From positions 930,001 through 962,000 of the forward strand of contig OY970357.1 in the NCBI GenBank assembly GCA_963718585.1: DNA of 32,000 bases. The letters are read 5' to 3'. Below the pieces are notes generated by a model, which was not told the DNA's origin, searched no databases, and saw only the letters and a list, made by a program, of their open reading frames with translations. Positions within the stretch are counted from its first letter, which is position 1. Each line of letters begins with the position of its first letter. Both the position numbers and the translations under genes were made by a program. Below are positions 3,963 to 13,768 of the stretch, one piece after another. The stretch comes from Candidatus Saccharimonadota bacterium. GTDB taxonomy: Bacteria; Patescibacteriota; Patescibacteriia; 2-12-FULL-60-25.

Positions 3963-4586
3963 TTAGAACGTCTGGTATTTCCGGATGACGGCGCGGACGA
4001 CTCCCTGGATCAACGGATCATGACAGTAGATCGGCTTCATCGTGGCGTTCGCAGGCTGGAGTCGGATCCGATCGCGTTCGCGATAGAACCGCTTGAGCGT
4101 CGCGTATTCGTTATCGAGGAGTGCAACGACCACATCACCGTTCTTCGGAGACGGATTGTGTTCCACGATCACATAATCTCCGTCAAAGATCCCATCGTCG
4201 ATCATGGAATCGCCCCGGACGCGTAGGACGTATGAATTCGCCGAGTCGCGAACGAGATCCACGGGGACGGCGAACGTCTCGCGCTCCTCGACGGCTTCGA
4301 TCGGAAGCCCGGCCGTGATCAGCCCCTTGAGCGGCAGGACGATGCTCTTTCCCCAGTGCACCGCTCGATCGGTCGGTTCGAGATTGCGTGCACCCGCGGC
4401 ATTCCCATTTCCCTTCAGATAGCCGCGCTCGCGCAACGCTTGGATGTGTACATGCACAGTCGATGGTGATGCCAGATCCAGACCTGAGGCGATCTCACGA
4501 AAGGATGGCGGATATCCACGGTCGTGAATGAATGAGACGATGAAGTCGAGGACTTCTTTTTGTTTGGGAGTAAGCGGCAACGGCAT
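3963..4586 (-). CDS. lexA: LexA repressor (S24 autopeptidase)
   Basis: N-terminal winged HTH (LTPKQKEVLDFI...GYPPSFREIA...STVHVHIQALRERGYL), an Ala-Gly cleavage site (ITAGLP), the catalytic Ser in VRGDSM and the Lys in ATLKRF. Confidence 0.94.
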   Translation of the reverse strand: MPLPLTPKQKEVLDFIVSFIHDRGYPPSFREIASGLDLASPSTVHVHIQALRERGYLKGNGNAAGARNLEPTDRAVHWGKSIVLPLKGLITAGLPIEAVEERETFAVPVDLVRDSANSYVLRVRGDSMIDDGIFDGDYVIVEHNPSPKNGDVVVALLDNEYATLKRFYRERDRIRLQPANATMKPIYCHDPLIQGVVRAVIRKYQTF

Positions 4587-10681: not shown

Positions 10682-12139
10682 GTGACAAATGCACGCAGGT
10701 GGCGAAAGGTCCTGCCGGCGATATTGGTCGCCGTGCTCTGGACTGTCATCGCCATGCCCGCTTGGGCAGCATTGAAGGGTCATCTGCCGCACAAGCTCGC
10801 AGAGAGTTTGCGGCATGATCCGGACGCCATCGCCTGTTTGCAGCAGACCTGCAACAGCAACGTCACCGTCGCCGAGTGTTCACAGGAACACCAGGAACGG
10901 ATCGACGCGGCACTAAGCGGACGGGTCCTCCCCGTCCTGCGTGGCATGCCGTATGGGGAACACGATCCCTCGGTCACCTCCCTCGAGCACCATGCGTGCG
11001 GGGATGTCCGACCGGTGGAGACCGTGATCGCCGAGCGGAACCTCGCACTGAAAGAGCGTGTCCTGCGTGGCCTCGTGGCCCTGCGGGATGCGGTCAAGAT
11101 GTGCGTGGCGCACGGCGGCACCCTCCCCGACATCGACATTCCGAGGGTCCACGACGGATCACCGTCCCAAGACCTCGACGAGCTTACGGCGGAACGCGAC
11201 AGCCTGTACGCAACGCTCGACCAGGTCACGGCAGCGACAAAGGTCGCCCGATCACGGTGCACGATCCCCCAGGCGCAGCCGACGGAGATCGCGGACAACG
11301 CGCCGAAACCCTCCGAGAAGCGACCCCAGGCCCCTGTGCCTGCGACGCTTCCCGCGGAGATCGCTTCGGCCGGTGATAAGACCGTTTCGGAACTCGACAC
11401 CCCGCCCGCCACGCGCGGGCATCTCAAAACCGCATCGCGGACCGCTCAGGCCACGCGGCGGCGGACCTCCGTGTATGAGATCCGATCGCAGACGCCGAAA
11501 GAACTCCGCGTTTGGATCCGTCATGGAGCCACCCTCGCTGACCTTCAGCGTTCCCCCGCGACGCGCGGGTACGATACGTCCCCAGAGGGCGTCTTCCACG
11601 CCAACACGTACCAAGCGACCATCCCGTTCTGTGACAAGAACGGATCGCGGACCTTTGACCCGGTCCGCTGGCACTTCGGAACAGGCGGCCGGAAGGCCGG
11701 CGACGCGCCGAACGCGGCGTTCGCCGGATCATGCACCACGGATGGCGGCCACTTCGGGATCGCCCTCCAGGAGCGCCAGGTCCTGATCCTGCAGGCGAAG
11801 AATGCCACACCGGCATCGACAACGACGAAGGGTGCAAAGCCCGCGACGACCCCTAAGGCCGTCTCGTCCGCATCGAAGCCGCCGGCATCCGTTGCCATGT
11901 CGATGGGACCGACAGAACCGCCTGACGCGGGTGCCATGCCCGTCTCGACCGTCACCCCGCAACCGTCTCAAACGGGAGCGACGTGGACGCGCGGACGGAA
12001 CATGTCGCCGGAATGGCTGTTCTGGACATTGATCGCCTCGCTGGCGCTCAACGTCCTGCTCCTCCTCTGGCTCTTCAAGGTCACACGGGCGATCAAGACG
12101 CCACAAGCGTCGACGCCCCAGACCAAACGGAAGTCCTAA
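10682..12139 (+). CDS. Hypothetical secreted protein with a C-terminal membrane anchor
   Basis: GTG start preceded by GGAAGG. Signal peptide ...ILVAVLWTVIAMPAWAA, Pro/Thr/Ala-rich segments, and a C-terminal TM segment WLFWTLIASLALNVLLLLWLF. Confidence 0.7.
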   Translation: MTNARRWRKVLPAILVAVLWTVIAMPAWAALKGHLPHKLAESLRHDPDAIACLQQTCNSNVTVAECSQEHQERIDAALSGRVLPVLRGMPYGEHDPSVTSLEHHACGDVRPVETVIAERNLALKERVLRGLVALRDAVKMCVAHGGTLPDIDIPRVHDGSPSQDLDELTAERDSLYATLDQVTAATKVARSRCTIPQAQPTEIADNAPKPSEKRPQAPVPATLPAEIASAGDKTVSELDTPPATRGHLKTASRTAQATRRRTSVYEIRSQTPKELRVWIRHGATLADLQRSPATRGYDTSPEGVFHANTYQATIPFCDKNGSRTFDPVRWHFGTGGRKAGDAPNAAFAGSCTTDGGHFGIALQERQVLILQAKNATPASTTTKGAKPATTPKAVSSASKPPASVAMSMGPTEPPDAGAMPVSTVTPQPSQTGATWTRGRNMSPEWLFWTLIASLALNVLLLLWLFKVTRAIKTPQASTPQTKRKS

Positions 12140-12348: not shown

Positions 12349-12849
12349 TCACGACGGCAGCGTCTCATGAAGAAAGGTCACGATCTCGGACCATTCATGG
12401 ACCTGATGGACGCGCCGCAGGCTGAAGAAATACTTCTTGATCTCATGCGGCCTGGCACGGAAAAGGATGCGGCACCGGACGAACCGGTACATGAGCAGCG
12501 TCTCCATGGACCGATCCACGACATGCGTCGCATGAAGTTCTTTGCATGCGAGCAGACGCATACGGTCCTTCCGGTAAAAGGCCACGTGATCATTGCGGAT
12601 CCCCGTCCGTTCAAAGAAGCGACGGCGGATGAGCCAGTCACGCGTCCGCTCTTCCGCCTCCAGGCGGCATTTGAAGAAGACATACCGCCGATCGCCGAAG
12701 CGATCTACGAGCGCAGCAAGCGCGTCGAACGCTCCGGGGACTTCCGGCATCTCGAGATACCCATCGCCATACAGAGAACGATCAGACGTCGGATCTACGT
12801 GGTCAAACAGCACACCGCCGATGGTGGTGACAAAGACTTCGCCTGCCAT
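12349..12849 (-). CDS. Hypothetical protein, possibly HAD/5'-nucleotidase-like fold without the catalytic DxD motif
   Basis: ATG at 12849 is preceded by a perfect SD (cgAAAGGAGGttctcATG). The track's longer 291-aa version runs through tRNA-Leu and is rejected. The N-terminus TTIGGVLFD sits where HAD motif I (DxDGV) would be. The fold assignment is weak. Confidence 0.6.
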   Translation of the reverse strand: MAGEVFVTTIGGVLFDHVDPTSDRSLYGDGYLEMPEVPGAFDALAALVDRFGDRRYVFFKCRLEAEERTRDWLIRRRFFERTGIRNDHVAFYRKDRMRLLACKELHATHVVDRSMETLLMYRFVRCRILFRARPHEIKKYFFSLRRVHQVHEWSEIVTFLHETLPS

Positions 12850-12953
12850 GAGAACCTCCTTTCGAAAGGGCGTTGATATGAGCTTATCAAGCGCGAGGAA
12901 AAAGTCGAGCGCGATTGTCAGGGAGGAGCATTTCCGGCAGACTGATGTCGCGC

Positions 12954-13034
12954 GGGCCCGTGGCGGAATGGTAGACGCAGGGGACTTAAAATCCCCAGCC
13001 GCAAGGCGTGCAGGTTCGAGTCCTGCCGGGCCCA
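12954..13034 (+). tRNA. tRNA-Leu(UAA), class II with a long variable arm; no CCA encoded at this 3' end
   Basis: GGGCCCG-TG-GCG..CGC-A-GGGGA-CTTAAAA-TCCCC-AGCCGCAAGGCGT-GCAGG-TTCGAGT-CCTGC-CGGGCCC-A. All stems pair. TAG follows, not CCA. Confidence 0.87.
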
Positions 13035-13197
13035 TAGCAGACATGCTCCGACTTCGGGGCATGTGTGCTATGGGCAGGACTCGAATGGGGAAGGCGATGG
13101 GAACCGGGAGGTTCCCATGGCGGAGGGAATGTCGGAGGCAAAGCCGACGGAATGGGGAACCGATGGGTTCCCAAGAGGCCGAAGGCCGAGTAAGATC
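13035..13197 (+). other. Hairpin-dense 163-nt insert between two copies of the tRNA-Leu 3' end (candidate ncRNA, intervening sequence or integrative-element remnant)
   Basis: A stem of about 19 bp pairs 13031-13049 with 13057-13075. 13073-13085 is a perfect 13-nt complement of the T-arm (13015-13027). Two hairpins share identical stems, GGGAACC(13099-13105)/GGTTCCC(13110-13116) and GGGAACC(13155-13161)/GGTTCCC(13166-13172). Further hairpins: GTCGG/CCGAC (13131-13148) and GGCC-GAA-GGCC (13177-13187). Confidence 0.5.
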
Positions 13198-13213
13198 CCT
13201 GCCGGGCCCACCA
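13198..13213 (+). repeat. Second copy of the tRNA-Leu 3' end (CCTGCCGGGCCCA) followed by CCA
   Basis: Exact 13-nt direct repeat of 13022-13034. Here it is followed by CCA (13211-13213). Confidence 0.85.
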
Positions 13214-13227
13214 AAACATTTCAAGGC

Positions 13228-13740
13228 ATGAAACGCGTTTCACTATTGATCAAAGACCACGGACGCATCTTCCACCTCCGGATCCCGAGCGGGGTGAAGA
13301 TCATCTATCAACCGATCAAAGGCTTGTCCCTTTTTTCGGATCGGATATTCAAAAAAGGGGAAGTGGTCATGCCGCTCAGCGGGAAGATCGTCTCATCTGC
13401 GCATCCATCGCCGGAAGCAGTACAGATCGATGCGACGCATTTCATCGACAGCGTCGAATACGTGCCGGAAGATTTCATCAACCATGCCTGCAGGGCAGAC
13501 ACGATGCTCGACGTCGATCGGAAAGCCTTTATCGCGCTTCGCCGCATCCACCGAAATGAGGAGATCACCTTCAACTATCTCACCACGGAATGGGACATGA
13601 AACGCCATAACACGGATTTCGACTGCATCTGCGGCGCCAAACGTTGTTTCGGCCGGATCCGTGGATTTCGTTATCTGACCGATGCTCAGCGCAAACGGAT
13701 CGCCCCTCAATTGTCGCCGTTCCTCCGATCGATGCGCTGA
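13228..13740 (+). CDS. SET-domain protein (putative protein-lysine methyltransferase)
   Basis: Motifs FINHACRADT (NHxC-type), EEITFNY and the post-SET-like CICGAKRCFG. The track's N-terminal extension back to 13063 overlaps the structured insert and is rejected. Confidence 0.82.
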   Translation: MKRVSLLIKDHGRIFHLRIPSGVKIIYQPIKGLSLFSDRIFKKGEVVMPLSGKIVSSAHPSPEAVQIDATHFIDSVEYVPEDFINHACRADTMLDVDRKAFIALRRIHRNEEITFNYLTTEWDMKRHNTDFDCICGAKRCFGRIRGFRYLTDAQRKRIAPQLSPFLRSMR

Positions 13741-13768
13741 AAAGACGCCTCACGGGCGTCTTTTTTGA
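13741..13768. terminator. Bidirectional intrinsic terminator between convergent genes
   Basis: Stem AAAGACGCC(13741-13749)/GGCGTCTTT(13755-13763), with a T-run after it and an A-rich stretch before it. Confidence 0.8.

Follow-up and report, generated by a model that had tools for sequence, protein, structure and literature searches.

We analysed a 32,000-nt stretch of contig OY970357.1 (GenBank assembly GCA_963718585.1, Candidatus Saccharimonadota bacterium; positions 930,001 to 962,000), hereafter called the window, in which a tRNA-Leu(UAA) gene is followed by a second copy of its own 3′ end. The gene (12954–13034, plus strand) was detected by ARAGORN and by Rfam (RF00005, 63.6 bits) as a complete cloverleaf with discriminator A and no encoded CCA. 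When the 81-nt tRNA was folded alone, the cloverleaf was the minimum-energy fold (−40.1 kcal/mol). Its 3′ terminus, ...GGTTCGAGTCCTGCCGGGCCCA, is followed by TAG instead of CCA. The last 13 nt, CCTGCCGGGCCCA (13022–13034, plus strand), comprise the 3′ strand of the T-stem, the 3′ strand of the acceptor stem and the discriminator; they recur at 13198–13210, where CCA follows directly. This distal copy together with its CCA (13198–13213, plus strand) holds the only encoded CCA of the tRNA-Leu locus, and between the two copies lie 163 nt (13035–13197, plus strand) that we refer to as the filler. CCTGCCGGGCCCA occurs exactly twice in the 32 kb, compared with 0.08 matches in shuffled sequences even when one mismatch was allowed.

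An initial annotation of the window, made from the letters without database searches, had reported this duplication, with CCA on the distal copy only, and had noted that the other tRNA genes present, tRNA-Gly and tRNA-Ser, encode CCA. We found the same: both of these genes encode CCA, and each is then followed by an intrinsic terminator (a hairpin plus a T-run). Two contigs of a separate assembly of run ERR11571143 (L070 and L176), one ending at 13125 and the other starting at 13098, are both 100% identical to the window. As the separately assembled contigs match both halves exactly, the sequence is not the artefact of one assembler.

Related loci carry an uninterrupted tRNA-Leu(UAA) gene

Proteins encoded around the tRNA gene place the organism in Patescibacteria (the Candidate Phyla Radiation, CPR); the source contig is 1,084,458 bp long. 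For PolX, encoded 2.3 kb upstream of the tRNA, there are many relatives at 70–77% identity, some of which are named Candidatus Uhrbacteria. We collected six related, Uhrbacteria-like loci: that of Ca. Uhrbacteria bacterium UHB (L074), found by scanning species-representative genomes with the last 27 nt of the tRNA, and five further loci (L180–L184) obtained via PolX homologues. PolX, tRNA-Leu(UAA), small minus-strand genes and RuvB are common to the window and L074; across the window and all six loci, the common neighbours are PolX, the small minus-strand genes, and Nramp or RuvB. In each of the six loci, the discriminator of tRNA-Leu(UAA) is directly followed by CCA, and a terminator hairpin comes next in five of them. 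Neither the filler, nor a filler homologue, nor a nearby tRNA fragment was found in the six related loci. All 13 other tRNA genes in the related loci and the window encode CCA.

With six empty relatives, the arrangement in the window is a derived one: the tRNA gene originally ended in the distal ...GGGCCCACCA, which was displaced when about 176 bp of DNA, including the filler, was inserted. The initial annotation had proposed just this from the position of the CCA, and had suggested looking for empty sites in related genomes, which were found in six out of six. Thus, a lineage-specific 176-bp insertion, bounded by a 13-bp direct repeat, lies at the 3′ end of a conserved tRNA-Leu(UAA) gene.

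The related loci also differ from one another around this gene. L180 (JGI 3300050348), whose PolX is the closest to that of the window (77%), has a gene for a large serine recombinase (L180:5879–7512, minus strand) immediately behind tRNA-Leu(UAA), its frame running antisense into the 3′ half of the tRNA. The product matches Pfam Recombinase and Zn_ribbon_recom with no match to the resolvase N-domain, and is therefore probably truncated; no second tRNA fragment was found in L180 before the contig end. tRNA-Leu(UAA) lies on the minus strand, opposite to PolX, in L181 (8114–8197; the inversion is seen by tblastx) and L184 (8850–8934), whereas it shares the strand of PolX in the window and in the four remaining relatives. 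The orientation of the flanking small genes and of Nramp is unchanged in L181 and L184; inversion or relocation in the history of the clade seems to have affected only the tRNA gene. L183 and L182, whose tRNA-Leu genes differ by one base, are distinguished by a 115-nt insertion in L183 just after the tRNA terminator (L183:3486–3600 versus L182:6900–6905), which is flanked by TCTGTAT, contains repeated TTTACG-containing motifs and folds unremarkably (z = −1.6). Compared with the related loci, the window has extra genes on both sides of the tRNA, a SET-domain gene being among those downstream. Given the L180 recombinase, the strand change in L181 and L184, the L183 insertion and the extra genes of the window, the tRNA-Leu locus is a hot spot in this clade.

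The filler is a dense array of hairpins

The filler had been described as a non-random, dense hairpin array, and folding bore this out. Its plus strand folds at −78.7 kcal/mol (z = −6.4 versus shuffled sequence) and contains five hairpins (H1–H5; all coordinates are for the plus strand). The minus strand folds at −64.6 kcal/mol (z = −6.1), so that the plus strand is better by 14 kcal/mol; with z near −6 on both strands, the structure is equally consistent with palindromes at the DNA level.

H1 is an extended palindrome (13015–13085; −54.2 kcal/mol, z = −9.5) that includes the last bases of the tRNA, in agreement with the opening hairpin of the initial annotation. The arms of its core (13030–13051 and 13054–13075) are 22 nt long and 91% complementary, and a single G-U pair favours the plus strand. 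The perfect 13-nt antisense copy of the T-arm that had been reported at 13073–13085 is present, antisense to TTCGAGTCCTGCC; an equally good match arose in about 0.2% of composition-matched random fillers (p ~0.002). H1 is followed by AGGACTCGAA, with no T-run terminator there. H2 (13094–13121) consists of GCGATGGGAACC and GGTTCCCATGGC, 12-nt arms with one mismatch, around a GGGA loop. H4 (13155–13172; GGGAACC GATG GGTTCCC) is a duplicate of the H2 core 56 nt downstream, so that GGGAACC-N4-GGTTCCC is found at 13099–13116 and 13155–13172. The two hairpins with identical stems are thus real, but the "compensating" loops ascribed to them have no meaning, since the loops are unpaired; the pair is a local duplication. 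The two further small hairpins that had been mentioned correspond to H3 (13131–13148; GTCGG AGGCAAAG CCGAC) and H5 (13177–13187; GGCC GAA GGCC). The filler begins TAGCAGAC... and ends ...GTAAGATC, with no terminal inverted repeats; when TAGCAGACATGC... and ...GGCCGAGTAAGATC were tested as termini of a miniature inverted-repeat transposable element (MITE), complementarity was absent. The separate assembly of ERR11571143 breaks within H2 (13098–13125), where its two contigs overlap by 28 nt.

We also asked how the array affects folding of the tRNA. The cloverleaf-constrained fold was 8.6 kcal/mol worse than the minimum-energy fold once the 3′ arm of H1 was included and 14.6 kcal/mol worse for the full 260 nt, in a nearest-neighbour energy model that takes no account of tertiary contacts, base modifications or the sequence of folding events in a transcript. 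Within this model, competition of the antisense segment with tRNA folding, as suggested by the initial annotation, is plausible. When the region is folded as a whole, the minimum-energy structure has the 5′ acceptor strand paired to the distal 3′ strand.

Local duplication within the filler

The initial annotation missed that the right arm of H1 is a reverse-complement copy of its surroundings: 13054–13085 is the reverse complement of 13015–13053, with two base differences and 5 nt missing, and the 5 nt absent from the inverted copy sit between GGC repeats. The copied stretch runs from the T-loop to the discriminator of the tRNA and on through the first 19 bases of the filler. Because it holds both the T-loop bases TTCGAGT, which lie outside the 13-mer, and the first 19 filler nucleotides, the inverted copy of the tRNA end was made in place, after the tRNA–filler junction had formed. 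H2 and H4 likewise represent a local duplication (19 nt at 84% identity, 56 nt apart), with GAATGGGGAA present twice, and an 11-nt filler unit is tandemly repeated (GGAATGGGGAA / GGCGATGGGAA); Tandem Repeats Finder reported no tandem repeat in 12900–13300. Much of the dense hairpin array is therefore explained by local duplication and not by an imported design.

For about 100 nt of the filler, among them the 19 nt that adjoin the tRNA, the window offers no template. The possibility that the filler is a decayed tandem copy of tRNA-Leu was rejected, as direct-strand local alignment compared with shuffles gave p = 0.27 (0.02 to 0.6 under looser scoring). The filler does contain short tRNA-like motifs, namely CGGAATGG, CCCATGGCGGA, a variable-arm-like GCC-GAA-GGC hairpin and CGAGT before the distal repeat; their alignment was non-significant against shuffles.

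Searches for relatives of the filler

No further copy of the filler or its hairpins was found in the 32-kb window. Rfam contained no family for the filler at gathering thresholds, and a scan of 12850–13350 at E <= 10 returned only the tRNA and chance-level matches to miRNA and sRNA models, far under their thresholds, with no group I intron, group II intron or ribozyme. In the metagenomes, the search for the hairpin pair that the initial annotation had recommended yielded no relative of the filler: two GGAACC-N4-GGTTCC hairpins 32–52 nt apart occur at 99 loci, which were rejected as homologues because they belong to unrelated hairpin-repeat families, none lies beside a tRNA, and the likeness is limited to the motif searched for. 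The same two-hairpin scan of viral contigs gave two loci, both unrelated. We also considered an element carrying the same attachment (att) sequence; the 22-mer of the tRNA end, searched in viral contigs, matched mostly tRNA-Met genes and prophage att copies and no tRNA-Leu(UAA) gene, and this candidate was rejected.

The metagenome scan brought to light multi-copy hairpin elements with GGGGAACC-N4-GGTTCCCC stems in many unrelated organisms (L075–L175). Tandem hairpin units of 62–65 nt occur in L088:2140–2265 and L167:2011–2136; the genome that holds such units is very GC-rich. Many contigs of sample Ga0310122 contain a family with long terminal inverted repeats and such a hairpin at each end.

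The interval between the tRNA and the SET gene

A promoter-like TTGTCA-N17-CAGACT (12915–12943, plus strand) lies 10 nt before the tRNA gene. It is a weak, putative site, and a consensus scan found no promoter; the layout is alike in L180 (TTGTCA-N17-CAAGAT, 11 nt before the tRNA) and in L074 (TTGAAA-N17-TATTGT, 11 nt). Downstream, a SET-domain gene of 170 aa (13228–13740, plus strand; Pfam SET, 3.9e-09) begins with ATG at 13228, leaving 14 nt between the distal CCA and the start codon, and not the 15 nt given by the initial annotation. No terminator-like site was found in 12700–13400, hence none between the tRNA and SET; the first one downstream of the tRNA is a hairpin plus T-run just after SET (13739–13765, plus strand). 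The SET gene is probably co-transcribed with tRNA-Leu.

Homologues of the SET protein are 165–170 aa long. One of them, 53% identical and encoded in a GC-rich genome (L179:2948–3075; GCA_052033915.1), begins 30 nt downstream of a tRNA-Ser(CGA) and its encoded CCA, again with no terminator; its public 193-aa gene call overlaps that tRNA. A conserved 5′ leader of SET genes was rejected, as the three SET homologue loci had no similar upstream sequence and no common neighbourhood.

Origin of the insertion

A direct repeat of a tRNA 3′ end whose proximal copy rebuilds the tRNA is the signature of site-specific integration. Here, the repeated segment reaches from the 3′ strand of the T-stem as far as the discriminator; a full tRNA is thus regained with the proximal copy, and CCA stays with the distal one. 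Prophage-border duplications of tRNA-Met in viral contigs have the same layout. Since the repeat is placed exactly where its proximal copy can make the tRNA whole again, and CCA and the original flank remain with the distal one, we tentatively read the insertion as an att-type integration scar, or a minimal element, that was remodelled in place by inverted and tandem duplication; among the explanations discussed below we hold this one most readily, and without firm confidence. For the decayed integrative element put forward by the initial annotation, the geometry therefore speaks in favour, whereas there is no integrase and no filler homologue; of the three mechanisms that it listed, this is the most likely one, a judgement taken from geometry only.

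The sequences themselves show the insertion, the repeat, the empty sites and the in-place inverted copy; the recombinase mechanism, the deletion and all consequences at the RNA level are what we infer. The tRNA gene would have recombined with an element that itself bore a copy of the T-stem, acceptor strand and discriminator. The element-borne copy would now complete the tRNA at the left junction (attL, proximal), followed by TAG and not CCA, and the original end, with CCA and host flank, would have been shifted downstream to the right junction (attR, distal). Nearly all of the element may have been deleted afterwards, or it may have been minimal and non-autonomous from the outset. The remaining 163 nt would then have been remodelled in place, an inverted duplication giving the H1 palindrome and a 56-nt duplication the H2/H4 pair. 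The predicted empty site has ...CCTGCCGGGCCCACCAAAACATTTC directly after the T-loop, and the predicted circle junction reads ...GAGTAAGATC-CCTGCCGGGCCCA-TAGCAGACATG.... The insertion would have deprived the tRNA gene of both its encoded CCA and its terminator. Transcripts started at the tRNA promoter would probably continue across the hairpins into SET; an endonuclease would presumably have to free the tRNA, to which the CCA-adding enzyme would then attach CCA, and H1 might form transiently at the expense of the T-arm and acceptor stem.

Several results weigh against integration. BLAST of the filler against phage and plasmid collections gave no match, and the rebuilt attP-like junction between filler and repeat was absent from viral contigs. 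No recombinase, transposase or integrase was recognisable in the 32-kb window with Pfam, PHROGs or NCBIfam, in accord with the initial annotation, which had seen no integrase or transposase; a recombinase hidden among the neighbouring genes that lack known relatives was also considered and rejected, since the same three collections gave nothing. The 13-bp identity block is short for a tRNA att site and stops before CCA, whereas in the prophage tRNA-Met examples the common block is about 45 nt long and includes CCA. As a remnant, the insert is extremely small, and a plain deletion remnant need not be as structured as this one (z = −6.4). The L180 recombinase is of the serine type, which leaves no direct repeat, and thus shows a hot spot only.

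The locus resembles the att duplications of prophages, integrative and conjugative elements and genomic islands at tRNA genes, decayed remnants and integrase-less cis-mobilizable elements (CIMEs) included, in the direct repeat of the tRNA 3′ end, in the proximal copy that completes the tRNA while the distal one keeps the original flank, and in the empty sites of relatives. It departs from them in having no integrase or other element gene and no related element, in its repeat of only 13 bp with CCA excluded, and in a content of hairpins partly copied from the tRNA. In Oenococcus oeni, prophage remnants at tRNA sites have degenerate att sites and are 5.2–19.5 kb long (PMC8074189); in contrast to such remnants of kilobases, only 163 nt separate the repeats here.

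Other explanations

Repair or replication errors could have produced the spacer with no mobile element at all. If a break or a stalled fork in this highly transcribed gene were repaired by template switching and slippage, the tRNA end would be copied in direct and inverted orientation, short tandem duplications would form and some filler DNA would be added; quasi-palindrome correction would then have perfected the stems. At least 32 nt of the filler (13054–13085) are indeed a local reverse-complement copy, the 13-mer is a local direct copy, H2/H4 and the 11-nt unit resemble local duplications, and the 5-nt gap between GGC repeats is as slippage would leave it. That no filler homologue turned up in the phage, plasmid, viral-contig, metagenome-motif or related-locus searches also agrees with this origin. 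A near-perfect inverted copy of a neighbouring sequence with a short loop, tandem duplications and a slippage-type 5-nt deletion are likewise familiar from quasi-palindrome and template-switch mutations and from fold-back inverted duplications. Such processes explain H1 and H2/H4, but not the roughly 100 nt without a template, among them the first 19 nt after the tRNA, nor a remainder without significant direct-strand similarity to tRNA (p = 0.27; 0.02 to 0.6 with looser scoring). Nor do they account for repeat boundaries that exactly rebuild the tRNA, which site-specific integration predicts and random repair does not; we regard an origin by repair errors as rather unlikely. A small non-autonomous transposable element, a MITE or a cluster of hairpins like the repetitive extragenic palindromes and bacterial interspersed mosaic elements (REP/BIME), with a 13-bp target-site duplication, is clearly unlikely. 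As in those elements, GC-rich stem-loops in short repeated units occupy an intergenic site within a short, perfect direct repeat; families of GGAACC-N4-GGTTCC hairpin pairs exist in many unrelated metagenomic organisms (L088, L167, Ga0310122), and L183 has its 115-nt TCTGTAT-flanked insertion beside the same tRNA. Unlike them, the filler has no terminal inverted repeats, belongs to no family and is single-copy in the sequences searched, with no second copy of it or its hairpins in the 32 kb or in 147 kb of related loci. Moreover, the metagenomic families match only the motif by which they were selected and never adjoin a tRNA, a 13-bp target duplication is unusual, and H1 copies the target itself and not the end of an element.

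Whatever its origin, the filler might be kept as a working RNA, a processing or stability module or a maturation switch, a possibility compatible with the other explanations. It could serve as a spacer between the tRNA and the SET mRNA, for example as a long duplex cut by RNase III in place of the lost terminator, or its anti-T-arm segment could pair with the proximal or distal copy and so tune maturation of tRNA-Leu; taken jointly, these versions seem to us improbable. The very strong structure (filler z = −6.4; H1 z = −9.5), the better folding of the plus strand by 14 kcal/mol, the terminator-free interval between tRNA and SET, the similar position of the L179 SET homologue after its tRNA-Ser, and the predicted alternative fold that beats the cloverleaf by 8.6 to 14.6 kcal/mol all speak for such a role. 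The 3′ external transcribed spacer of leuZ acts as an sRNA sponge in E. coli, and the would-be RNA here likewise sits directly downstream of a tRNA-Leu in its precursor, though the two share no sequence relation. Yet the filler is unique to this genome, so that there is no covariation or conservation to indicate selection; no Rfam family matched it at E <= 10; the similar z on both strands is explained equally well by DNA-level palindromes, with only one H1 G-U pair in favour of the plus strand; and the relatives manage with plain CCA and a terminator. The initial annotation had also raised a non-canonical intervening sequence, whose removal (176 nt) would join the tRNA body to the distal CCA-bearing end. 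The only encoded CCA is on the distal copy, and the whole-region minimum-energy fold brings the 5′ acceptor strand together with the distal 3′ strand, as this idea would have it. tRNA-Leu(UAA) is, moreover, the classic host of bacterial group I introns; in cyanobacteria and plastids, these interrupt the anticodon loop with a ribozyme core of at least about 200 nt, whereas the extra sequence in the same tRNA species here is at the 3′ end, 163 nt long and without an Rfam match. To our knowledge, 163 nt is shorter than any known self-splicing core. No group I, group II or ribozyme model matched at E <= 10, the site is not the anticodon loop, the proximal copy already yields a complete, high-scoring tRNA, and six of six relatives lack the insertion; the intervening sequence thus fails on these counts, and we give it almost no credence. 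Hardly better placed, and still very improbable, is the broader notion of a non-inert, tRNA-embedded RNA module in a tiny-genome CPR bacterium, that is, either an intervening sequence or a switch (13071–13085 pairing with the proximal or distal copy) that gates maturation of tRNA-Leu(UAA), probably the only one of the cell, and couples it to expression of the SET methyltransferase.

The insertion is real and confined to this lineage; most likely it is of a generally known type, with curious local remodelling, and not a new RNA device. If the att-type scar is the correct reading, integration scars at tRNA genes occur even in Uhrbacteria-like genomes of about 1 Mb, and a tRNA can survive such a scar although its gene is stripped of the encoded CCA and the terminator. 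The locus further illustrates how inverted and tandem duplication can build up a dense hairpin array on the spot, with no selection for an RNA function. The locus would carry greater weight if the genome had no CCA-adding enzyme or RNase Z, or if the hairpins controlled tRNA-Leu maturation or SET expression.

Flanking genes

Two public gene calls beside the locus look over-extended: a 228-aa call (12349–13035, minus strand) starts at 13035 and runs antisense across the whole tRNA, and a 207-aa SET call (13117–13740, plus strand) starts inside the filler. Two window genes between PolX and the tRNA (10682–12139, plus strand, and 12349–12870, minus strand) have no known relatives; their products gave no match in Pfam, PHROGs or NCBIfam, and the 173-aa gene just upstream of the tRNA had no homologue but itself among 5.8 billion proteins. 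The gap between PolX and the tRNA is only 12–100 nt in L074, L180, L182 and L183, and other genes occupy it in L181 and L184. Farther away in the window, a LexA-like repressor gene (3963–4586, minus strand) matches LexA_DNA_bind and Peptidase_S24. In the separate assembly (L176:8540–10777), the LexA-like gene lies near a Y-family polymerase gene (IMS, IMS_C), which suggests an SOS-type cassette in this small genome.

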